This document shows, piece after piece, positions 1-35,823 of a DNA stretch of 35,823 nucleotides. The notes below the pieces were generated by a model. It made no database searches, had not been told where the DNA came from, and saw nothing but the letters and a program-made list of their open reading frames with translations. Source of the stretch: Deltaproteobacteria bacterium (GTDB lineage: Bacteria; Desulfobacterota; Dissulfuribacteria; Dissulfuribacterales; UBA3076); the NCBI GenBank assembly GCA_021159445.1, contig JAGGRV010000409.1:1-35823 (forward strand). The letters run 5' to 3'. Numbering within the stretch: position 1 is the first letter of the stretch; every line of letters begins with the position of its first letter. Position numbers and translations under genes: made by a program.

Positions 1-103
1 CTGAAACACACACCACAACCAACACGCAAAGTATACGCTCGCGCATAGGCATATACTATGCGCGAGCGTATACTTTGCGTGTTGGTTGTGGTGTGTGTTT
101 CAG
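1..103. repeat. Terminal palindrome (candidate hairpin telomere): arms 1-46 and 58-103, spacer 47-57 AGGCATATACT
   Basis: The reverse complement of 1-46 (CTGAAACACACACCACAACCAACACGCAAAGTATACGCTCGCGCAT) equals 58-103 exactly. Only the 11-nt centre is asymmetric. Confidence 0.9.
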
Positions 104-4125: not shown

Positions 4126-5070
4126 CTAGCTAGATAAAACCTTTGTCACGGTATAGGACACGCTAACGCCTGGGCCCTGCACACTAACGCCAGGGTACCT
4201 CACGCTCCCGCTAACACCCAGTGAAGGCCCAGACACGTCCACGCGCGGGTACCTGGTCTCGTACGCTATGCTAAGCGAGGGTCCAGAGACGTTGACTCGC
4301 CACCACATATGCAGTTCCAGGCCTACGGTAAGCGACGGGCCCGACACGTCGACACGCGGGTACCTCGTTGTCGGGGACACTGATATTATTGGTCCTGAGA
4401 CGTCGGCGCGCGGGTACCTGTAGGCGTAGGACACGGCTATTGAGGGGCCAGGCACCGACACCAGCCTATACACTATCGTGAGTAGCGAGACAGTAAACTT
4501 CGGGCCGGTCACGTCCGTGCGCGGGTACCTGAGCCAGGGACGTACGCGAAACCTCTTGATATATCCTAATTTATTATATTGTATATAGCTCTGCACCGAC
4601 ACCCTCACGTCTATGCCCGAAACGAACGCGAGCACGTGCTCAAGCGCGTCCGCAAGCTTCCTCAGGAACGTTATCTGGCTGTTCACGTCCTTCGCGGACA
4701 CGTAGTCGCCGTAGCTCACGTAACGCATGTTTACTGTCTCGCTACTGAGAGCGGAGTAGTCACTCCGTAGCCACGGCCTGGACAGTACAAGTCGGTAGAA
4801 CCAGTCGGTGACAGCCCTCGCGTTGTCGACCCTGTCGTTGTTGTCCTCTGGCAGGATCACGTCGATTAGGTTACGCACGCGCCTGAGCGTCTTAAGCTGA
4901 GGCGGGTCTAGCTTGGGCGGGAGCGAGTCGAAGAACTGCTTAACCACGTCCCAGGCCTCGGCGAGGATGTTGTGGTGCTGAGCGTCCACCACCTGCCCGT
5001 GCCTGACCTCACCCAACCTAGAAAGGACCTTGCGCAGTCGCTTAACGTGCTCGACAGACATCCCAAACAC
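4126..5070 (-). CDS. Repeat protein: helical N-terminal half plus 7 tandem repeats of R(YP)RVDVSGPSLxVS (15-22 aa) in the C-terminal half
   Basis: RYPRTDVTGPKF, RLVSVPGPSI, RYPRADVSGPII, RYPRVDVSGPSL, RVNVSGPSL, RYPRVDVSGPSL, RYPGVSVQGPGV. Repeats of CGCGGGTACCT are visible at the DNA level between 4190 and 4530. Confidence 0.65.
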   Translation of the reverse strand: MFGMSVEHVKRLRKVLSRLGEVRHGQVVDAQHHNILAEAWDVVKQFFDSLPPKLDPPQLKTLRRVRNLIDVILPEDNNDRVDNARAVTDWFYRLVLSRPWLRSDYSALSSETVNMRYVSYGDYVSAKDVNSQITFLRKLADALEHVLAFVSGIDVRVSVQSYIQYNKLGYIKRFRVRPWLRYPRTDVTGPKFTVSLLTIVYRLVSVPGPSIAVSYAYRYPRADVSGPIISVSPTTRYPRVDVSGPSLTVGLELHMWWRVNVSGPSLSIAYETRYPRVDVSGPSLGVSGSVRYPGVSVQGPGVSVSYTVTKVLSS

Positions 5071-16297: not shown

Positions 16298-16608
16298 TTC
16301 TCGACCTCGTCCCTGAGGTCCCTAACCTCGTCCTTTACCTCGTTCAGTTCCTCCCTGAGCTCCTTGACCTCTGTGCTCAGCTTCGCGAGCTGTTTCCTCA
16401 GCTCCGCGATCTCTGTCAGCACCTTCTGCATTTTCTCCATCAGTGCCTCGATCGGTGCCAGGCAGCCCTCCTTGAAGTCTGCGATGGTCTTTTCGTAGGC
16501 GTCGAAGTAGCTCTGGACGTCGCTCTCGAGCTTCTTGACGCGCCTGTCAAGCTCTACGATCTTCTTAATGACTGTGTTCTCGATGAAGTCGAGTAGTTCG
16601 GATGCCAT
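16294..16608 (-). CDS. Coiled-coil protein
   Basis: ORF 16294..16638. The likely start is MASELLDF at 16608, sharing its A with the upstream stop (TGATG). The C-terminus has heptad repeats. Confidence 0.55.
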   Translation of the reverse strand: MASELLDFIENTVIKKIVELDRRVKKLESDVQSYFDAYEKTIADFKEGCLAPIEALMEKMQKVLTEIAELRKQLAKLSTEVKELREELNEVKDEVRDLRDEVEK

Positions 16609-17420
16609 CACTCCATCCCCTCCAGCATTCTCTTCCACTTCTCGATGCGCGCCCTAATCTCTTCGAGCTCTTTCACCGCCTCTTTTTCCTCTTTTTCAGC
16701 TTCTCCACCGCTCTCTTCTTCGGCCGCTTCCTCGGGCTTCTCCGCCTCTTTAACCTCTTTCTCTGGCTCCGCCGCCTCCTTTATTTCCTCCTTGGTTTCT
16801 GCCTCGCTTTCTTGCTCTGCCTCCCTCTTTTCCTCGGCTTTCTCACCTATTGCGCTCAGGATCTCGGCGACTTCCTCGTCTATTGCTTCCTCTTTCGGCT
16901 CCTCCTCCTCGATCTCGACCATGGGTATCACCGCGAACGGCCGGCCGTCGCTGCCCTTTATCACGACGATGTCGACGATCTGTCCCGCGAACCTCATCCT
17001 CAGCAGCGAACTCCTGTAGCCCCTTGGCAGGAACATCCTTATCGGTGGAGAGTTGTCGATGCTCTGTATCATTCCGTTCTCGAGAACCATGTACCTCTTT
17101 GCAAGCTGCTTGAGGTGTTCCTTGACGTCTTCGTCCACGATCTCTATCCCTGTTATGACGTAGTCTTCGGACATGGTCACGCGCACGCGCGGGACCTTGT
17201 TCTTTCTGACAAGCTCTACGACGCGCATTATTTCGGGCACTGTGAACGCCGAGACAACTTCTGTCCCTACGACTTTCCTCTCCTGACTGAAGTACTTGAT
17301 CGTGTACCTGTTCGCTATTGTCGCGACGTAGTCCAGTATAATCCAGTGCTCGACTATCTGCGCACCCCTCCTTTCCTCACGCTCTATATACTCCTTTAAT
17401 CCCTCGACGAATTCACTCAT
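16608..17420 (-). CDS. Hypothetical protein with a long acidic low-complexity C-terminal tail
   Basis: ORF 16608..17441. The likely start is MSEFVEGL. The tail is rich in E/K/A (EEPKEEAIDEE...AEKEEKEAVKELEE). Confidence 0.55.
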   Translation of the reverse strand: MSEFVEGLKEYIEREERRGAQIVEHWIILDYVATIANRYTIKYFSQERKVVGTEVVSAFTVPEIMRVVELVRKNKVPRVRVTMSEDYVITGIEIVDEDVKEHLKQLAKRYMVLENGMIQSIDNSPPIRMFLPRGYRSSLLRMRFAGQIVDIVVIKGSDGRPFAVIPMVEIEEEEPKEEAIDEEVAEILSAIGEKAEEKREAEQESEAETKEEIKEAAEPEKEVKEAEKPEEAAEEESGGEAEKEEKEAVKELEEIRARIEKWKRMLEGME

Positions 17421-17652
17421 TCTCTTCCTCACCTCCAACAACCTTCTTGTCTAGCCCAAGCTTCTTTAGCCTGGGGAGAACAACGTGCTCGTAGTAGTAC
17501 CTTACCGCCTCGTCGACGACGTCGGATTTCTTCACGCTCTTCACCTCGCCGTACTCGAGGAAGTTAGCTGCCTCAATCAGCCGCACCATCTCGTCAATAA
17601 GGCGCTTCGTCTCTTTCCTCACTACAATATATGTGTAGGGCTTCTCGGGCAT
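17413..17652 (-). CDS. Ribbon-helix-helix-like protein
   Basis: The likely start is MPEKPYTYIVVRKETKRLIDEMVRLIE, preceded by GGAGGTGGTGGG. The second helix is SDVVDEAVRYYYEH. Confidence 0.5.
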   Translation of the reverse strand: MPEKPYTYIVVRKETKRLIDEMVRLIEAANFLEYGEVKSVKKSDVVDEAVRYYYEHVVLPRLKKLGLDKKVVGGEEENE

Positions 17653-17760
17653 TCCCACCACCTCCGCACAATACCAAAACTGCATTAACTAATAAACTTT
17701 TTGTATGGTACACACGTAACAAACCGCTTCACAGCGTTTGGTATGTTTGGTAAGTACCGA

Positions 17761-17814
17761 AGCGGGCCGTTTAGTGGCGGTCTAAATTAATTTTAAATTA
17801 ATTTGTTCCGCCAC
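17761..17814. repeat. Copy 1 of a 54-bp direct repeat: GC clamp GTGGCGG/CCGCCAC enclosing a 27-nt AT-only core
   Basis: AGCGGGCCGTTTAGTGGCGGTCTAAATTAATTTTAAATTAATTTGTTCCGCCAC. The core holds two copies of the palindrome AAATTAATTT. Confidence 0.85.
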
Positions 17815-17904
17815 GCTAAGCAGGGCTACGGTACACACCAAATACACAACATGTTTGATATTGCTTGCGCGCACCAAAAATATTGTTGCTTTGGTATGTA
17901 CTGT

Positions 17905-17958
17905 AGCGGGCCGTAGGGTGGCGGTCTAAATTAATTTTAAATTAATTTGTTCCGCCAC
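17905..17958. repeat. Copy 2 of the 54-bp direct repeat, offset exactly 144 bp
   Basis: AGCGGGCCGTAGGGTGGCGGTCTAAATTAATTTTAAATTAATTTGTTCCGCCAC. It differs from copy 1 at 3 positions. Both copies are preceded by TTTGGTATGT. Confidence 0.85.
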
Positions 17959-17977
17959 TGAACGGCCGACTTTGGTA

Positions 17978-18006
17978 CGCACCAAAAACACTAAATTTTT
18001 GGTGCG
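17978..18006 (-). terminator. 11-bp-stem hairpin spanning the helicase stop codon (CGCACCAAAAA / TTTTTGGTGCG)
   Basis: Stem 17978-17988 and 17996-18006, loop CACTAAA. The stem includes a U5 tract in the minus-strand RNA. Confidence 0.4.
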
Positions 18007-19370
18007 AGGGCCCTCGGCAAAACGCGCCTGAACGCTGCCACGGCGTTCTGCAGTCCACGAACCTGTTCTATCTCGCAGTACTTCTCTATGTAGCTCCTGA
18101 AGAACTTGTGCGTCGCCTCGTACGCGCGTGCATCAAGCATTACGATAATGTGAGGCTTGCTGTGTACGCGAATGAACCTGAAGTAGGCCTGCACGTTCTG
18201 CGCCTGGCAAAGCAACTTGTTGAAGTCGGTGATGGGTGTCGAGAAAACTGTTGAGGCAGCGTCCTCGATGGCGGGGTGGAGCATCCTGAGCGGGTCGTGG
18301 TGTTGGAAGTCGCAGATCACGACGTCGCGGTCGAGCGAGAGTCCGCGGAACAGTTTGTTTCCAGGTACAATAATGACTACGTTGTGGTCGCGGGCCTTTC
18401 TGTAGTCGCCTCCCCAGTACGCGTCGATGCCTCTGCCGAGCAGGTAGTACCCGATTTTGTCGGCGAACTCGTTCTTTCGTGTCACTATACCGACTGTAAG
18501 CCCGTGCAGAACCGATTCCTCTGCAATGTCACCTATTGCCTGAAGATACTGCCTAAACCACTCACCCATCCTGTCCTCAACAAGCCTCTCGATGTTATAG
18601 ATGATGAATTGTTTCGCAACGTTACGCGTCCTCACCTCGTAGTACCTAGGTATGTACCTGAACTGTAGGAGCGACTCGAAAGGCTTCTTCCATGTCGCGC
18701 TCAGGAACACAATGAGCGGCGCTTTAAGCACCGAAATCCTGAACCAGTACCGCCTCGTCGACGGGTCGTAGTACCACTTCTTAACTATGTGTTTAGCTAT
18801 TTCCTTATCTATCTCGTCACCTTCCTCCAACATCTTGTTTACCGTCTCTTCGTCTATGCTAAAGTTGCTTAGGCTATTGATAAGTTCCTCCGCCTCGTCA
18901 ACAATGATCACGTCTGGCCTAGTAACTGCGTTAACGAGCGGGAGAAGAAGGTGTGTCGTAACGATTACGCCTCCGCGCAAGGAAAAAGCAATGAGTTCCC
19001 TGATCTGCTTAACGAACGGGCACTCGCTGCATGTGCCAGCCCTCTTAAACTCGAGGCATTTCCGCACGTACCTAAGCCAGTCCTCGGTGTCGACACCCTT
19101 GAGTGGGCAATTCTCGAGTTCATCTTTTGCAACGAACTCGAAGGCCCTCATGCCGCGGTTCATGATTTCTATATATGCCCACTTCCGGAGCTGGCGCCTC
19201 GGTTCGCAAAAGATCACTACACTATTAAATTTATGTAATAAGGAAATTATTGAGCGTGTTTTGCCAGAGCCAGGCAGCCCCTGCACTATAGCTACAAGCT
19301 TAGTCCTCTTTCTCTCATGCAAAGTCTTAGCTATGTGTTCGAGCTTCGGCAACTCACTTACGCTTGGCAT
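17991..19370 (-). CDS. SF2 helicase, XPD/Rad3/DinG-like, with a putative 4-Cys Fe-S insertion
   Basis: Walker A GLPGSGKT and Walker B VIIVDEAEE. Four Cys lie between them (ENCPLKG ... RKCLEF ... GTCSECPF), as in the XPD Fe-S domain. The later FRGLSLDRDVVICDF resembles motif V. Confidence 0.65.
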   Translation of the reverse strand: MPSVSELPKLEHIAKTLHERKRTKLVAIVQGLPGSGKTRSIISLLHKFNSVVIFCEPRRQLRKWAYIEIMNRGMRAFEFVAKDELENCPLKGVDTEDWLRYVRKCLEFKRAGTCSECPFVKQIRELIAFSLRGGVIVTTHLLLPLVNAVTRPDVIIVDEAEELINSLSNFSIDEETVNKMLEEGDEIDKEIAKHIVKKWYYDPSTRRYWFRISVLKAPLIVFLSATWKKPFESLLQFRYIPRYYEVRTRNVAKQFIIYNIERLVEDRMGEWFRQYLQAIGDIAEESVLHGLTVGIVTRKNEFADKIGYYLLGRGIDAYWGGDYRKARDHNVVIIVPGNKLFRGLSLDRDVVICDFQHHDPLRMLHPAIEDAASTVFSTPITDFNKLLCQAQNVQAYFRFIRVHSKPHIIVMLDARAYEATHKFFRSYIEKYCEIEQVRGLQNAVAAFRRVLPRALAPKI

Positions 19371-20502: not shown

Positions 20503-20561
20503 CCTCCCAACCCCCCGCACCCACTTCCTAAGCCAAGACAATACACAATAAACAAAATAAA

Positions 20562-20768
20562 ATGTTTAAGCGCAGACACTATATGAAATGGCACTACGCC
20601 TTCATAGTAGGGTTCCTAGTGGCTAGGGTCCTTGAGAATGAGCTTAGGGACTACCTAAACGGCTTGTTTTCTGTCTTGAACTGGGAGGCGTGTTCCGACC
20701 CCGACGAGGTTCTTCTCTCCTTCTTTCTTTCGGTTCTAGAGGACTGGGCGGGGGTGGATGTGTCGTGA
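20562..20768 (+). CDS. Hypothetical small protein with a hydrophobic N-terminal segment
   Basis: ORF of 68 aa (HYAFIVGFLVARVL). First gene of the long plus-strand block. Confidence 0.45.
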   Translation: MFKRRHYMKWHYAFIVGFLVARVLENELRDYLNGLFSVLNWEACSDPDEVLLSFFLSVLEDWAGVDVS

Positions 20769-21124: not shown

Positions 21125-21174
21125 CCTTCGGAAACAAACACATATATTTTCAATAATATTGAGTATATATTGAG

Positions 21175-28005: not shown

Positions 28006-31000
28006 TGGGCGTGCCCCAGCACGTGCCTGACGAACTGTTTACTGTCTCGACAGAGGAGGCAAGGGAGGTCGGTGAGTTAGTAGCGAACATACTCGTGATC
28101 GACATCGAGGAGGCGCGCAAGATAGACCTGAGGCAAGTCGCGAGCGGAACGGCGGGAATCGTAGACCCGATAGGGCAGCTCCAGGCTTGGCTCGCAGACC
28201 AACTCAACGCTCTGGTAAGCGTCATAGTTACCCCGCTGAGCCAGGCTCTCGAGACCGCCAAGGACTGGCTCTATACGCAGATTAGTAACGCGGTGTCTGG
28301 CTTCGTAGACACTATAATAAATACATTTAATGAAATTATTAAGCCCGTTTCGGAGACAGTAAACACCATCTGGACAGGCCTAAACACGCTTATCTCGGCC
28401 ATAGGCGAGCTAAGCAACACGTTCCTCGAGGGCCTTGCCAAGATCGTGGACACTGTCACGAAGGGGTTCACGGAGCTCGGTTCGGTGCTGACGGGCTTCG
28501 TTAACGCAATAATGCAGTTCCCGAACTGGTTCCCCGAGTGGTTCCAGAAATACATCTCGGAGCCGATAGCTAACGCGCTAAGCACGTTGCCGACGGTCTT
28601 TGCGCAGTCGGTCTCTGCGGTCATAGCTACGATAGTTTCGCAGTTGGAGACGTTGTGGAGGTACTTGAGCGACGCTGCCAAGTTCGTGTGGGACAAGCTG
28701 GTGGAGTTCGGTGCGTGGGTGGCGGAGAAGCTTGTCGAGGCAGCTAAGGCGTTCTACAGCTTCCTCGTGGACGCGTCTGCGTCGTTTGAGTCGTTTGTGA
28801 AGGACGTGTTCACGGGCCTGTTCCAGACGGCGTCCGCGTTCGCAGACGCAATGAAGGACTGGCTCGCGAAGGCGCTGAGGGGCGAGGCCGGCGAGCTAGA
28901 CGTCTACATCGGCGTGTCTGGCGTGATACTGAGCGGTTGGTTAGCGGCCATCTCGCTTCCGCGTCTGCTCAAGTCCCTCGCGGGCACGCTCAGGGGCATG
29001 AGGATACCGATCATCGGCGTGTCGCCGGCGTACATAGCGTACGAGGTCGGCGACTACCTTGAGAACCTGATCCACCAGTACGGTAGGCACACGTTGATGG
29101 GCTGGGCACTGGTCGCGTTCGAGCCCCTCCGCTACGTTTGGAGGGGCATCTGGAAGAGGTTCTTCGAGTCCATCGGCTTCGCAGACATACCGTTTGCGTT
29201 GCCTGAGCTGAGCCACGTGAGGGACGTGATCAGGCGCTCGATGGTGTGGGTAGAGGACTTTGCTAAGCTTGTCAAGGGCGAGTTGCCTGACGCGTTCAGG
29301 GACATGTACGAGAGGGCGAAGCTCGTGCTGGAGATGAGGGGGTTCCCGACCTGGTTCATCGAGTACTGGCTAGACCTCGGCCAGAAGTACAGCATGACCG
29401 TCAAGGACAGGTTCGGTACCGAGAGGCTGATGCTGCTCGGGCCCGTCTGGACGGTGCCGACGCACAGTGAGGCAGTCAGGATGCTCCAGAGGGACGTGTT
29501 CCAGTCACCTATGGAGTGGGCGAGGTTCGTAAGGATCTACGGCTGGAGCGAAGACCTGGCCAAGATGTACTACATGCTCTCGTTCAAGTACCCGAGCTTC
29601 AGGGACCTCTGGGCCTTCCTCACGAGAGGCATAGCGGGGATGCTGTGGTATCGCGCACCTGACTTCGTCAAGCGCATCTTCGAGGCCGACGCTAAGTGGC
29701 TGGGCGCCGGCACCCCCGTCGACCCGTACCAGCTAAACTACGACTACAATGCCTTGTTCAGCGCAGTCAACATCTACGCCAAGTGGATACAGATGAGCAA
29801 CTTTAGCTGGTTCAGGAAGGGTGCGAAGCTGAAGTACGGCGACCAGGAGATCACCATCGACTTCGACTGGACGGCGGACAGCTGGCTAACGTTCGACATC
29901 ACGGCGGACATACCGGGCAAGATCGATGCTAGGTGGATGGTTAAGTGGGGCCTGTTCGACCACCTCACGCTCAAGATAGGGAGGAAAGTCGGTGAGGTGT
30001 CGACGTACCCAGAGGAACCGTTCGTTGACTTGGTGCTTAAGGTGCTCGAGAACCAGGCAACGAGCAATGTTGTTATGGACCTCAGGCCGTTTTGCCGCCT
30101 GCTAGTAGCTAACGGCCTACATCCCGCGTGGGTTCCGCTGACTGCTGTCGCCGAGGCCATCAACGCCTTGGCCGACGAGCGTACGCTTCTGAGGACAGGC
30201 TTCATTAACCTGTTCAAGGAGGGGTTCTTCAGCTACGAGACCCTGGACAAGCTGTTGGAGGGCTTCGTGATCGCGTCGTTCATAGTCGAGTACTTCGACG
30301 TGGCGAGTAAGAAGTGGGTTGCTGGCGCCGTGAATGTCCCTGTCAGGTACCTGCCTGCTGAGCGCAGGTTGCTGGAGCTTAGGGCCGTGATGGACAGGGC
30401 CCTTGACATCTTGCGCGACTTCGTGCGTGAGCTCGCGCGTGCCTACCGCGAGTACATCATCAGGGACGTTGACGGGTTCGTTAAGCTCCTTGTCGGCGGC
30501 GTCGAGACAGTAAACACGTGGTTCAGGAAGCTCATGAAGGACATCACGGGCAAGGAGCTTGCGCTCGTGACAGACCTCGACTACTGGAGGGCCTACGCCG
30601 TCGTTCTCCAGCTGGAGCAGCAGGTGTACACGATCCACAGGATGAGGTACTGGGCAAGCAGGTACATCGGCTGGATCCTGTACCGCCTTGCCTACGGCTA
30701 CGTCAGCATAGAAGACGCTAAGAAAGTCATCGAGCTCGTCGGCCAGGCCTGTATGTTGACGCCTCAGGAGATCCAGCTCCTTGAGCAGCTGAGCGAGCTC
30801 CTCATGGGTATCGCGCGCAGGGAGTACATACCGACGCCGTCCCAACTCGCTACGATAGCGGAGGTCGTGCCTGAGGCTAGGGAACTGTTCCCCAAGGTCG
30901 TGGAGGCGAGGAACATACCTGCGGAGTGGGCCGAGATCTGGTGGAAGTACGTGCAGCTGAAGCCGTTGGTCGACGACGTCAGGAGGTACCTGAGCGTGGT

Positions 31001-31930: not shown

Positions 31931-32484
31931 TGCCTCATGAGCGAATATTTTCCTCGGTATTTTCTCTGTGCAAAAGAGAATTTACCATCGTTTGTAAAAT
32001 CTGCACAAACCGTTTGCGAAAGATTAGTCGTGACGAATTACGACGTGTGCCGCGGAGAGCTTGGTAAACGTAGGTTTACGTTTGTCCAGGACGGCATTGA
32101 CATTTTGGACAGAGATTTCCCAAAACTCTTTCGAAGGGACGAAAGGGAGCACGCGGCCGACTTTGGTACGCCAACTCTTTGGAACGGGGGACATGGCGTC
32201 TCCAGCCCCGACCCTGCGCTGGCCCGCAATAGGAGGGGTGTCCGAGGCGTTTGCGGACGTTTTTTTCTCTTTCGCCTAGGTGAAGCTGGGACTGAGCTCC
32301 GACTCAGCTCTATATGACCTATATGCGGTGTTATATACGATTCCTCTTTTCCGACTGGCCCTAGGTCACCTATAGAGGTCTAGATAGATACTGCATGATT
32401 TATCATGCGGAATGCGCATCCCCGTTAATATACAGTAAATTTATGAGATATAGACGCGGGTTTCACGTGTTGGAGGTGGTGCGT

Positions 32485-34937: not shown

Positions 34938-35165
34938 AAAGACGCAACCGATCGTTTTCTTCACGAGGGGTTTCGTGTCTTAACCAGTCTTCGTCCTAAT
35001 GCGAATCATTGTGTCCTAACCCTTGTCGATCTTCACGTATGTTGACGTGTCTCAACCGTGGAGGATCTTCGCGTGATGCGGCGTGTCTTTTCCTGTTGGC
35101 GTCTTTGTGTTGTGTTTCGTGTCTTGACCTTTCCCTGGTGTCTCGGTGTGTGTTGCGCCCCGTCC
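34938..35165 (-). repeat. Right sub-terminal block of about 6 units of the 36-bp repeat family, inverted orientation
   Basis: CGTGTCTTAACC at 34974, TGTGTCCTAACC at 35010, CGTGTCTCAACC at 35046, CGTGTCTTTTCC at 35082, CGTGTCTTGACC at 35118, with exact 36-bp spacing. These are reverse complements of GGTTAAGACACG-type cores. Confidence 0.75.
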
Positions 35166-35180
35166 TCCCCCTGCTCTTTT

Positions 35181-35823
35181 CTGGTCTACCGGTGTTTTCT
35201 GTCTTTTTCCGCCTCTCCGCGCTCTAGTCTGGTCTACCAGTGTTTTGTTGACTCTGGCACGTTCCCCTGCTCTATACTGGCATACCAGTTTAGTGTCGGC
35301 TTGTGTGCGTTTCCCTGCTCTATACTGGTATACCAGTGTTTAGCCGGCTCTCGCGCGGTTGTTTCGGCGTTCGTTCCTTGAACGTTTCGAGTCGTGTCCG
35401 CGTCGTCGACGGCCTGTAACGTGCCTTGAATGTTTCGAGTCGCGTGGGGCTATGGACCCGCGTGTGTAGTGCCTTGCACGTTTCAAGACGCGTCCCTCCC
35501 CGCAACCCCCTGAGTAGTTACTTGAACGTTTCGAGTGCCGCGGGTCTTTACTGGCATACCAGTAGTGCGCGTGCCAGCGCTCTCTATTGGCATACCAGTG
35601 GTAAATGTGCGGACGTTCTCTATCGGTATCCCAGTATATACCGACCGAGTCACACAAGCCCGTGCCCAAACACCACCACCGCAGGCAAGCCCGCGCCGAG
35701 CAATAGCAACAAACACGCAACTGAAACACACACCACAACCAACACGCAAAGTATACGCTCGCGCATAGTATATGCCTATGCGCGAGCGTATACTTTGCGT
35801 GTTGGTTGTGGTGTGTGTTTCAG
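35181..35823. repeat. Right inverted terminal repeat (ITR)
   Basis: Exact reverse complement of 1..643. The mirrored ORFs 481..678 and 35146..35343 differ only in their first ~12 residues, which places the end of perfect identity near 643/35181. Confidence 0.95.
35721..35823. repeat. Terminal palindrome at the right end, with the spacer in the opposite orientation (AGTATATGCCT)
   Basis: Same 46-bp arms as the left end. The spacer is the reverse complement of the left spacer, as expected for a perfect ITR. Confidence 0.9.

Follow-up and report, generated by a model that had tools for sequence, protein, structure and literature searches.

A duplicated palindromic element at the midpoint of an Adnaviria-type viral genome: a candidate internal replication origin fused to an operon control region

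A noncoding spacer at the centre of an Adnaviria-type viral genome is marked by two identical, GC-clamped AT-rich cores, each forming the centre of a large imperfect palindrome flanked by mirror pairs of short boxes. We tentatively propose that this spacer is an internal, probably bidirectional replication origin of the linear, hairpin-ended genome of a rod virus, fused to the control region of the adjoining small-gene operon, a reading that in our estimate falls just short of even probability. To our knowledge, the way in which archaeal viruses copy their genomes is established for very few of them, and the only well-studied rod-shaped case starts at the genome ends; here, an uncultured hydrothermal-vent virus combines its own primase and an unusual XPD-like helicase with a clear candidate origin at the genome centre.

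The central spacer and its duplicated element

The window, by which we mean the whole analysed stretch of 35,823 bp, is a complete linear genome (54% GC) of Adnaviria type; it encodes a SIRV-like coat protein and Hjc, and its 777-nt ITRs are accompanied by read-around hairpin tips. Terminal 103-nt perfect palindromes are present at both ends, and from these read-around palindromes we infer that the ends are covalently closed hairpins. The ITRs contain phased 48-bp repeats of their own as well as palindromic boxes, and an ATATAT-type motif, AAAAC(C)ATATATWTTT (also given as AAAACCATATATTTTT), recurs upstream of about ten operons of the virus. No close relatives were found by DNA or protein in the phage and archaeal-virus GenBank collection, although SIRV2 is included there, and none in IMG/VR by helicase or PrimPol queries; a word-index search with PrimPol returned PrimPol itself as the sole match.

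The spacer (Table 1) is the longest in the central 21 kb according to public gene calls, and it spans the exact genome midpoint at 17912, which a 338-bp spacer would cover by chance in about 1% of cases. This position was overlooked in the earlier note, which had delimited a 305-bp region at 17686-17990; ATG 17652, preceded by the SD GGAGGTGGTG, is the most likely start of the small gene, in place of 17685, and the actual spacer is accordingly longer. Its coding potential amounts to short overlapping ORFs of at most 42 aa lying wholly or mostly within it, none with support, and as a whole it gives very stable predicted folds on both strands (z -12).

Two 54-bp direct repeats had been described at 17761-17814 and 17905-17958, and they are indeed present, with three differences (51/54) and an offset of 144 bp. 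Within them, the 41-nt unit GTGGCGG-TCTAAATTAATTTTAAATTAATTTGTT-CCGCCAC occurs in exactly two genome copies with 0 mismatches, none being expected (100 shuffles). The two clamped palindromes reported for each core were likewise found: AAATTAATTT is a 10-bp palindrome, present twice per unit with centres 11 bp apart, and occurs at these four places only, genome-wide. The 27-nt interior of the core had been called pure A/T, but only 25 of its 27 nucleotides are A or T, and the pure run measures 22 nt (17783-17804 and 17927-17948). These two runs are the longest in the genome, the next being 14 nt; the description of the cores as the most extreme AT islands is correct up to about 22 nt, but not at windows of 30-60 nt, where other sites are as AT-rich or richer (21132-21171, 28302-28342, 4548-4587 and 19203-19262). 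The units, with their GC-clamped 22-nt A/T runs, are not the least stable sites at 30-100 nt, and the 300-nt segment 17651-17950 is the least stable of its size by a narrow margin (-399.9 vs -400.5 kcal/mol).

A duplex-unwinding element, as suggested before, would be consistent with the two longest pure A/T runs, but these are short (22 bp), clamped by GC and kept letter for letter. Since the cores are identical at all 41 positions while the arms have diverged (61-70% alike), their conservation points to sequence-specific recognition, beyond mere meltability. No copies of the core pattern were found in IMG/VR or in 185,579 species genomes (GTDB), and none in the JGI metagenome contig collection, which gave no match at all and evidently lacks the source contig. 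The bare AT part does match viral contigs, all of them from genomes of 22-36% GC in which the clamps are absent; these are AT-rich giant-virus and phage contigs, and the matches are ascribed to chance. Promoter activity as the main role of the AT cores was considered and dropped, as the cores are without the recurrent upstream motif of the virus.

Six contigs with an identical helicase (L001-L006, from three sources) are each more than 99.9% identical to the window, and both cores are unchanged in the five of them that reach the units; with sequences this close, natural variation is uninformative for the region. Depth is flat across the assembled contigs (four public runs), and the 41-nt unitig of unit 2 has twice the depth of its neighbours (two public runs). 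Two hydrothermal-vent runs contain the virus at a word depth of about 40-75x.

Each unit is also the centre of an imperfect palindrome of 114-137 bp, a feature that had been overlooked. These palindromes are the strongest fold-backs in the genome after the two terminal hairpins, with folded stem-loops of 114 and 115 nt (z -5.8 to -6.4 over both strands). The palindrome of unit 1 is predicted to form a hairpin of about 100 nt from either strand as single-stranded DNA (z -6.1 and -5.8) and is the fourth strongest 120-nt fold of the genome (-3.4 sd). That of unit 2, which is the largest internal inverted repeat and overlaps the helicase ORF by 16 bp at its 3' end, is the strongest fold after the terminal hairpins (z -6.0 and -6.4 for the two strands; -4.7 sd). 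Both units have 14-bp terminal inverted repeats and an AT-rich interior. At the right edge of the spacer, the helicase stop codon TAG (17993-17991, minus strand) lies within the 7-nt loop of a perfect hairpin, which is likely the terminator of the PrimPol-helicase operon because a T5 run is present on both strands (on the plus strand at 17996-18000). Another T5 run, on the minus strand at 17879-17883, is located left of unit 2.

Short boxes are concentrated around the units. Five of the eight genome copies of the TTTGGTA half-site, noted earlier as flanking the repeats, fall within 17672-17977, and 2.85 are expected genome-wide. For ACCAAA/TTTGGT, 9 of 26 genome copies lie within about 334 bp (17673-18003) as against 0.24 expected there (post-hoc Poisson 6e-12), a 35-fold local excess arranged as mirror pairs around each core, and the long box GTAYNNACCAAA has all four of its genome copies in the region. 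Around each unit, the GGTACnnACCAAA boxes stand in inverted pairs at 43-48 bp from its centre and do not form tandem arrays. In the likely promoter zone of the small-gene operon, the motif-like ACCATACAAAAAGTTTATTAG has a degenerate box on one side (17704-17720) and an ACCAAA box on the other (17673-17678). A scan for sigma-70 promoters and intrinsic terminators was unsuited to an archaeal virus.

Table 1. Coordinates of the central spacer, its elements and the neighbouring genes
Feature	Position	Strand	Details
Noncoding spacer	17653..17990	both	338 bp, from helicase stop codon to start of small RHH-like gene; gene calls
Unit 1 core	17774..17814	+	GTGGCGG, TCT-AAATTAATTT-T-AAATTAATTT-GTT, CCGCCAC; clamp hairpin z -6.8
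Unit 2 core	17918..17958	+	41/41 identical to unit 1, same orientation
Unit 1 extended imperfect palindrome	17737..17850	both	centre 17794; outer arms TTTGGTAAGTACCG and CGGTACACACCAAA
Unit 2 extended imperfect palindrome	17870..18006	both	137 bp, centre 17938; 68-nt arms, 74% complementary, 1 nt between
Hairpin	17978..18006	both	perfect 11-bp, CGCACCAAAAA / TTTTTGGTGCG; dG -12.1, z -5.1
Two overlapping-phase boxes	17737..17751	-	ACCAAA on minus strand, left of unit 1
Box CGGTACACACCAAA	17829..17842	+	right of unit 1; mirror image of 17746-17759
Boxes CGCACCAAAAA (+) and TTTGGT (ACCAAA on minus)	17870..17895	both	left of unit 2
Back-to-back boxes TTTGGTACGCACCAAA	17971..17986	both	right of unit 2
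Likely promoter zone, small-gene operon	17671..17720	-	candidate; ACCATACAAAAAGTTTATTAG at 17712-17692, resembles AAAACCATATATTTTT
PrimPol, archaeo-eukaryotic, 382 aa	19354..20502	-	first gene of operon; PF09250 E 5.4e-6, 27.4 bits vs cut-off 22.8
SF2 helicase, 459 aa	17991..19370	-	XPD/DinG-like predicted fold; Cys cluster between Walker A and DEAE motif
Small DNA-binding-like protein, 79 aa	17413..17652	-	labelled RHH in the earlier note
270-aa protein	16608..17420	-	conserved partner of the module; no family match

The PrimPol-helicase module and its distant relatives

The spacer directly follows the operon that encodes PrimPol (assigned by Pfam) and the XPD-like helicase, and the adjacency to replication genes that had been reported holds. 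In the distant relative L013, the protein encoded upstream of the helicase shares 37% identity with PrimPol (E 8e-76). The predicted structure of the helicase (pLDDT 78) matches XPD 8rev_A (E 1.3e-10, TMq 0.65), DinG and archaeal XPD 3crv, and its relatives number 45 in 1.8 billion proteins. The 79-aa protein shares 32% identity with its small counterpart encoded next to the L014 helicase, and the small proteins of L011, L033 and L034 align weakly with it. Its model consists of an extended N-terminus and two long helices (pLDDT 81); searches of Pfam, NCBIfam and PHROG gave no match and a structure search no PDB match with E <1, and the RHH label is plausible but unproven. The 270-aa protein is 28% identical over 231 aa (E 1e-8) to a 294-aa protein after the helicase in L011. 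A Pfam scan of about 40 ORFs found no rudiviral-type Rep or other nickase, including HUH nickases, although such a Rep may have no Pfam model.

In four distant relatives, at least 380 bp of noncoding DNA lie directly upstream of the small RHH-like gene (L011, L014/L033 and L034), with boxes that are different or with none detected. The noncoding regions beside the module in L011, L033 and L034 are 384-510 bp long; those of L011 and L033 are box-rich, and no clear boxes were found in that of L034. In L033, a 340-bp palindrome encloses two divergent TTTTTAAAT promoter-like sites with TGACTCA boxes next to them. In L013, the PrimPol and helicase genes precede a noncoding stretch of at least 399 bp, which contains GAAAGAATTGA iterons at 23-bp intervals and an AT tract of 30 nt; tandem iterons with a spacing of 22-23 bp occur in both L011 and L013. 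Predicted folding of the post-helicase spacer is no stronger than that of shuffled sequence in L013 (z -1.3) or in L009 (z +1.1). Judged from these sequences, neither the large palindromes, of which L033 has the only other example, nor the box sequences are conserved among the relatives; what keeps its position is a long noncoding stretch immediately upstream of the small gene (window, L011, L033 and L034), and an operator therefore fits as well as an origin.

A candidate origin compared with known systems

The earlier note had already read the region as an internal origin, and its midpoint position, the strongest internal fold-backs, its place downstream of the PrimPol-helicase operon and the recurring noncoding regions in relatives are consistent with what we, too, infer. 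In the proposed model, a sequence-specific protein would bind the paired AAATTAATTT palindromes (11 bp centre to centre), the flanking GGTACnnACCAAA boxes or both, the candidates being the small RHH-like protein with its 270-aa partner or PrimPol and the helicase themselves. The 22-bp A/T run would open as a bubble at the high growth temperature of the host, with the GTGGCGG/CCGCCAC clamps setting its size, or alternatively the 114-137-bp palindrome may extrude as hairpins. The XPD-like 5'-3' helicase would load on the exposed strands, one per strand and moving apart, PrimPol would lay the first primers, and bidirectional forks would arrive at both hairpin tips about simultaneously because the element sits on the genome midpoint. 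The same boxes, beside the operon promoter, would tie small-protein expression to occupancy of the origin, and the stop-codon hairpin would terminate the PrimPol-helicase transcript.

It is a bolder and rather doubtful proposition that a member of the Adnaviria with closed hairpin ends uses a mid-genome origin for bidirectional replication in the manner of Borrelia or phage N15, with PrimPol and a compact XPD-like iron-sulfur helicase loading on a GC-clamped AT bubble and Hjc resolving the ends. If true, it would represent a second, fundamentally different replication mode within the realm, and the first XPD-type helicase to act in origin opening or as a replicative helicase; we know of no XPD-type helicase with a replicative role. 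If the origin reading is right, PrimPol, the helicase, the small binder, the 270-aa partner and a 340-bp cis element would make up a compact, testable module from a lineage without cultured hosts, and a possible basis for a shuttle replicon; otherwise, the spacer is nonetheless a control region of unusual complexity.

The candidate origin would be analogous to the stem-loop origin of the Sulfolobus plasmid pRN1, in which the 166 bp downstream of the PrimPol-helicase gene comprise a putative terminator and a 100-nt stem-loop required for replication (PMC4234260). A similar arrangement has been proposed for phage BIP-1, whose rep gene terminates within the loop of a small stem-loop, with a large stem-loop after it, in the middle of the genome (PMC4234260), and in SNJ2 an essential element is located just downstream of the rep gene (PMC13107129). 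As in pRN1, with its orf56/orf904 operon, the element found here lies directly after primase/helicase genes and behind a terminator-like hairpin, has extended stem-loops of about 100 nt or slightly more and belongs to a module with a small repressor-like gene. With BIP-1 it shares a rep/helicase gene end in a small hairpin loop and a mid-genome site in a linear genome. [quoted passage not shown] There is no sequence similarity between the two elements, and the stem-loop structure is conserved among pRN plasmids but not among the relatives of the module.

The oriS and oriL origins of herpes simplex virus are palindromic, with an AT-rich centre and inverted initiator boxes. The likeness to the spacer extends to the AT-rich centre, the palindrome (45-144 bp), the inverted boxes on either flank, a helicase of SF2 type that may act as opener and the proximity to replication genes; boxes and proteins are not homologous, however, and the virus differs in its archaeal host domain, linear hairpin-ended genome and tandem-duplicated units. 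The dso-copG-repB region of pMV158 is a further model, as an iteron origin and RHH-controlled origin-promoter region. It resembles the spacer in having clustered short repeats (9/26 ACCAAA and 4/4 GTAYNNACCAAA copies here) by an AT-rich stretch, with an initiator-type replication gene and the gene of a small regulator, RHH-type in pMV158 and putatively so here, close by. In contrast to the tandem 22-bp iterons of that type, the boxes described here have no tandem helical-turn spacing and form mirror pairs at +/-43-48 bp around palindromes, and no HUH nickase was found. ORB-type boxes, as in archaeal chromosomal oriC regions (ORB/mini-ORB with Orc1/Cdc6), were searched with a TTCCAnTGGAAA-like core pattern and up to two mismatches and were not found in the spacer; the only two genome matches are both in the ITRs, fewer than expected by chance.

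The Borrelia chromosome and linear plasmids are hairpin-ended and have internal bidirectional origins (PMC4914115). Closed hairpin ends (predicted here), a central candidate origin and the need for a junction-resolving enzyme after replication (Hjc here) are common to both, but Borrelia relies on the host replisome and on a telomere resolvase that resembles tyrosine recombinases, and the origin sequences are unrelated.

Against an origin stands the fact that the Adnaviria studied initiate elsewhere: SIRV2 replicates from its termini, initiating in the ITRs (PMC5062984), and for AFV1 an unusual strand-displacement route is cited in PMC4889955. The virus has the realm, a SIRV-like coat protein, Hjc, ITRs and hairpin-type ends in common with SIRV2; unlike it, SIRV2 is without a PrimPol-helicase operon, and the SIRV2 midpoint, used as a control in favour of the origin reading, lies inside a gene and shows no fold-back. 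The phased 48-bp repeats in the virus's own ITRs are a rival candidate for the initiation site. In addition, a rightward fork from 17.9 kb would meet transcription of the 2.5-kb PrimPol-helicase operon head-on, a simple unwinding element would need neither a letter-perfect core nor GC clamps, the palindromes are not conserved and the box sequences differ among relatives. GC skew has its minimum at 20.5 kb, where gene orientation switches, and not at the spacer; it tracks gene orientation, and it was dropped as an origin marker because the coding strand sets the skew in nearly every gene.

Other readings of the spacer

The main rival explanation, possible though less likely, is transcription control alone. 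The right part of the spacer would then terminate the PrimPol-helicase transcript through T5 hairpins (17978-18006 and 17870-17886), and the rest would be a long looped operator of the small-gene operon, on which the small RHH-like protein, as dimers of dimers on the paired AAATTAATTT sites and/or the ACCAAA boxes, would repress its own promoter at about 17.69-17.71 kb. A promoter for the RHH operon had been offered before as an alternative, and its support equals that for an origin: the long noncoding region is found directly upstream of the small gene in every relative that has this gene (4/4; L011, L014/L033 and L034), and the small proteins are homologous. In the window, a box is located at the likely start site (17673) and a degenerate box just upstream of the promoter-like motif, and the TGACTCA boxes next to the divergent promoter-like sites in the L033 palindrome would fit the same role. 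Two 10-bp palindromes 11 bp apart correspond to the classical geometry of a ribbon-helix-helix tetramer, as established for Arc and CopG. Moreover, ORF56 of pRN1 is an RHH-type repressor of the replication operon (PMC4234260). However, about 140 and 285 bp separate the identical cores from the start codon downstream, and the units are about 90 and 230 bp upstream of the sole promoter-like motif (17692-17712), which they do not overlap and which is flanked by weak ACCAAA-type boxes only. A length of 338-510 bp is far above the needs of an archaeal operator in such compact genomes, the midpoint position and the 114-137-bp palindromes are left unexplained, and neither Pfam nor the structure search confirmed an RHH fold.

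Improbable, in our view, is an sso-like function, in which replication would proceed by terminal strand displacement and the exposed 100-nt hairpins would be entry sites where PrimPol or the helicase starts the complementary strand. Equally strong long hairpins on both strands would suit such a function, and a mid-genome site would halve the length of single strand exposed from either end. For SIRV2, both strand displacement and long intermediates of ssDNA have been documented (PMC5062984), and hairpin ssi signals recognised by a primase are known from RSF1010, as summarised in PMC4234260. The flanking inverted boxes and the perfect 10-bp double-strand palindromes resemble duplex-binding sites instead, and no rudiviral-type Rep or nickase was detected by Pfam in about 40 ORFs, a weak objection given that such a Rep may have no Pfam model.

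Still less probable is a selfish or structural palindromic insert (MITE-like and tandem-duplicated) or a site for recombination or packaging that takes no part in replication or transcription. The terminal inverted repeats and AT-rich inside of each unit are MITE-like in fashion, and a 17-nt piece of unit 2 recurs in the gene at 32155; the core pattern, however, has no dispersed copies in IMG/VR, the GTDB genomes or the JGI contigs (a collection evidently without the source contig), the AT-part matches come from AT-rich viral genomes without clamps, the unit ends show no target-site duplication, and the cores have stayed identical while the arms of the two copies diverged. One or two structured small RNAs transcribed from the spacer, the other alternative raised earlier, are highly improbable and found no support: the folds are very stable and the plus-strand T5 run at 17996-18000 could end a plus-strand transcript, but the region gave no Rfam match at gathering score, only chance-level miRNA-hairpin matches (E >=0.015) and no tRNA, the usual promoter type is absent before either unit on both strands, and both strands fold equally well, as DNA palindromes should.

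As a separate observation, the 17-nt sequence CGGCCGACTTTGGTACG, which occupies 17964-17980 in the right arm of unit 2, has an exact copy at 32155..32171 on the plus strand, inside the gene at 31937-32317; by our estimate, about 0.001 such copies are expected by chance.

Paired palindromic units at the genome midpoint

The noncoding spacer between the helicase stop and the start of the small gene covers 338 bp (17653-17990), rather than the 305 bp of an earlier note, because the small gene starts at the ATG at 17652, preceded by GGAGGTGGTG. All repeats and boxes listed in that note are present where it placed them, including the 54-bp direct repeats, which differ at three positions. Their inner 41 nt (the cores: GTGGCGG, TCTAAATTAATTTTAAATTAATTTGTT and CCGCCAC) are identical in both copies and have no other copy in the genome; the pattern found no match in shuffled sequence, and dispersed copies were absent from IMG/VR, the JGI contig collection and 185,579 species genomes. 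AAATTAATTT occurs at four places genome-wide, all within the two units, and 17673-18003 holds four of four GTAYNNACCAAA boxes and nine of the 26 genome copies of the ACCAAA/TTTGGT hexamers (0.24 expected there). The A/T part, previously taken as 27 nt of pure A/T, is A/T at 25 of the 27 positions with a pure run of 22 nt; the two runs are the longest of the genome (next longest, 14 nt). In that respect the cores are indeed the most extreme AT islands, but at 30-60 nt other sites are equally AT-rich, and at the 300-nt scale the spacer region is the least stable of the genome by a marginal difference only. Identity between the units is 41/41 in the core as against 26/37 and 22/36 in the outer arms, so either gene conversion or selection for the precise sequence has kept the core unchanged. 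This conservation argues for sequence-specific recognition over mere ease of melting.

Each unit sits at the centre of a large imperfect palindrome, a feature that had been missed, and that of unit 2 is the largest internal inverted repeat in the genome (Table). Outwards, the arms end in the boxes (TTTGGTnnGTAC ... GTACnnACCAAA), 43-48 bp either side of each unit centre. Both strands of both units, folded as single-stranded DNA, give hairpins of about 100 nt (z between -5.8 and -6.4), and the whole spacer gives a z of about -12; in a GC-corrected sliding 120-nt fold scan, the units (-4.7 and -3.4 sd) are outranked by the two terminal hairpins alone. A further, perfect 11-bp hairpin (17978-18006) carries the helicase stop codon within its 7-nt loop and gives a T5 run on both strands. 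The genome midpoint (17,912) lies between the unit centres, 26 bp from that of unit 2, and the probability that a 338-bp spacer covers it is about 1%; in SIRV2, used as a control, the midpoint falls within ORF488, without fold-back. Seventeen nucleotides of the right arm of unit 2 (17964-17980, CGGCCGACTTTGGTACG) recur exactly at 32155-32171 inside a coding gene (31937-32317), which is unlikely to be a chance event.

Coordinates of the palindromes and promoter-like motifs
Feature	Position	Strand	Remarks
Left terminal palindrome	1-103		1-48 is the reverse complement of 56-103
Right terminal palindrome	35721-35823		Same arrangement as left end
Unit 1 palindrome	17737-17850		Centre 17794
Unit 2 palindrome	17870-18006		Centre 17938; arms 68 nt, 74% complementary
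AAAAC(C)ATATATWTTT motif	Upstream of 21184, 22769, 27733	+	
AAAAC(C)ATATATWTTT motif	Upstream of 13136, 11830, 9958, 9514, 26133	-	

The replication module and its relatives

The operons on both sides of the spacer are on the minus strand. The upstream operon encodes PrimPol (PF09250, above cut-off) and then a very divergent 459-aa helicase (17991-19370, minus strand), with 45 relatives among 1.8 billion representative proteins. Its sequence shows the Walker A, DEAE, SAT and Q/R motifs as well as Cys residues clustered between Walker A and B (DEAE), and the best structural matches of its model (pLDDT 78) are to XPD, DinG and archaeal XPD (E 1e-10, TMq 0.65). Motifs and model together place it as a compact XPD/DinG-like SF2 helicase and rule out the SF3, MCM and DnaB types. 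It is the founding member of a small, unannotated family whose genes regularly occur together with one for a PrimPol in archaeal mobile elements. The downstream operon encodes 79-aa, 270-aa, coiled-coil and 182-aa proteins; the RHH label given earlier to the 79-aa protein fits its predicted pattern (extended N-terminus, two helices) and its relatives, and was not confirmed by profile libraries or a structure search.

Six contigs encoding an identical helicase are >99.9% identical to the window, with both cores unchanged in the five that reach the units, and are therefore of no use for covariation. Five genomic contexts of distant relatives of the module were compared. In L013/L032, whose PrimPol is 37% (E 8e-76) and helicase about 30% identical to the window proteins, these two genes precede a noncoding stretch of at least 399 bp, which contains two direct CGAAAGAATTGA copies 23 bp apart, one inverted copy of the CGAAAGAATT part and, beyond them, a 30-nt AT tract. 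L011/L030 has an AT-rich 510-bp spacer with three GAAAGAATTGA iterons 22-23 bp apart and degenerate copies; next come a small RHH-like gene, the helicase gene and a gene for a 294-aa protein homologous to the 270-aa one. L009/L031 has one GAAAGAATTGA copy in a spacer of 402-474 bp after the helicase. L014/L033 encodes the helicase and a convergent small gene (32% identical to that of the window) and then has a 384-bp spacer formed by a nested palindrome of 340 bp, in which TGACTCA boxes adjoin two divergent promoter-like sites. In L033 this palindrome (504-841) lies between two divergent small RHH-like genes, adjoining the helicase homologue, and contains mirrored GTTTTTAAATCAGGC promoter-like sites as well as the TGACTCA boxes. 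In L034/L035 a PrimPol-like gene and the helicase gene are followed by two convergent genes, and a 445-bp spacer then separates these from a small RHH-like gene and a gene for a 253-aa protein.

A noncoding region of at least 380 bp thus accompanies the module in all five distant contexts, and its constant neighbour, where the small gene is seen, is the start of that gene. Short repeated boxes are abundant in these regions of the window, L011, L013 and L033, and their sequences vary from lineage to lineage; long hairpins are not conserved in the relatives' spacers that were subjected to fold prediction (those of L013 and L009). The 11-nt iteron GAAAGAATTGA is common to L009 (5392), L011 (5391-5447) and L013 (2853-2932), beside the helicase and in tandem at 22-23 bp in two of the three, in elements with a GC content of 29-54% and helicases mutually only about 27-33% identical, which suggests a conserved binding protein.

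Origin and control readings of the spacer

The window is a complete linear virus genome with inverted terminal repeats (1-777 and 35047-35823) of 777 nt, 95% complementary. The outermost 103 nt, the same at both ends, form a perfect palindrome with 48-nt arms and a 7-nt centre, and the simplest reading is that the assembly probably ran round covalently closed hairpins, whose true tips would lie near 52 and 35772. Because a 124-aa protein matches the Sulfolobus rod-virus coat protein family (PF12193, E 1e-24) and there are matches to Hjc resolvase (E 4e-13), a Cas4-like nuclease and an STIV-B116-like protein, the virus is, on its gene content, classed as a rudivirus-like member of the Adnaviria from hydrothermal-vent metagenomes. 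Glycosyltransferases and a methyltransferase are also encoded, and no relatives were found in the GenBank phage/archaeal-virus collection, which includes SIRV2.

Our leading, if tentative, reading is that the spacer combines an origin with a control region. An origin is favoured by the location of the spacer, behind the replication genes and across the genome midpoint, and by the size and symmetry of the palindromes with their mirror-paired boxes. By analogy, the hairpin ends and Hjc also favour it; hairpin-ended replicons require junction resolution after bidirectional replication (PMC4914115). Similarly, a terminator and a 100-nt stem-loop on which replication depends lie within the 166 bp that follow the PrimPol-helicase gene of pRN1, and in phage BIP-1 the rep gene ends in a small-hairpin loop followed by a large hairpin, mid-genome (PMC4234260); archaeal virus SNJ2 has an essential element just after its rep gene (PMC13107129). 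The internal origin of the earlier note fits in position, palindromes, boxes and genome type. We infer every step of the initiation mechanism: cores and boxes would be bound by a sequence-specific protein, either the clamped AT run would melt or the palindrome would be extruded, the XPD-like helicase and PrimPol would then come in, and forks would travel to both hairpin ends, with Hjc resolving the junctions.

The main rival, a control region without origin function, is the less probable of the two; it draws on the constant position next to the small gene, on the boxes near that gene's promoter-like motif and on the 11-bp spacing of the two 10-bp palindromes, a geometry typical of RHH proteins. 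Next, and improbable, comes a single-strand priming signal for terminal strand-displacement replication. Replication of SIRV2 initiates at the termini (PMC5062984), and by analogy initiation here may be terminal too: the terminal repeats contain 48-bp repeats in phase, with ACTGGTATACCAGT palindromes, at 464-655 and ACTCGAAACGTTCAAG boxes at 288-451, where terminal resolution or initiation might take place. A minor alternative site for an origin is the AT-rich, divergent spacer of 80 bp at 20503-20582, at which both gene orientation and cumulative GC skew change over; this spacer is without repeats and probably holds two back-to-back promoters. Neither an RNA family or tRNA nor a supported ORF was found in the spacer.

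Promoter motifs and other repeats

GC skew tracks the coding strand and is thus uninformative as an origin marker. In operon-leading genes, AAAAC(C)ATATATWTTT stands about 25-45 nt ahead of a ribosome-binding site of the GGTGGTG type (Table) and is probably the BRE/TATA consensus of the virus; the AT cores are unlike this common motif, which speaks against promoter function as their main role. The 12-mer GAGACAGTAAAC and close variants occur genome-wide on both strands (e.g. 4487, 10724, 21904 and 28037), and 7835-8535 is a long array of degenerate repeats with a phase of roughly 36 bp (TGGTTAAGGCACGAA...GTGAAG). A 30-nt repeat (GGCCCAGACACGTCCACGCGCGGGTACCTG-like) is present four times, 83% alike and at spacings of 111, 54 and 111 nt (4226-4531), inside a 311-aa gene (4126-5061) and is probably a repeated protein motif.
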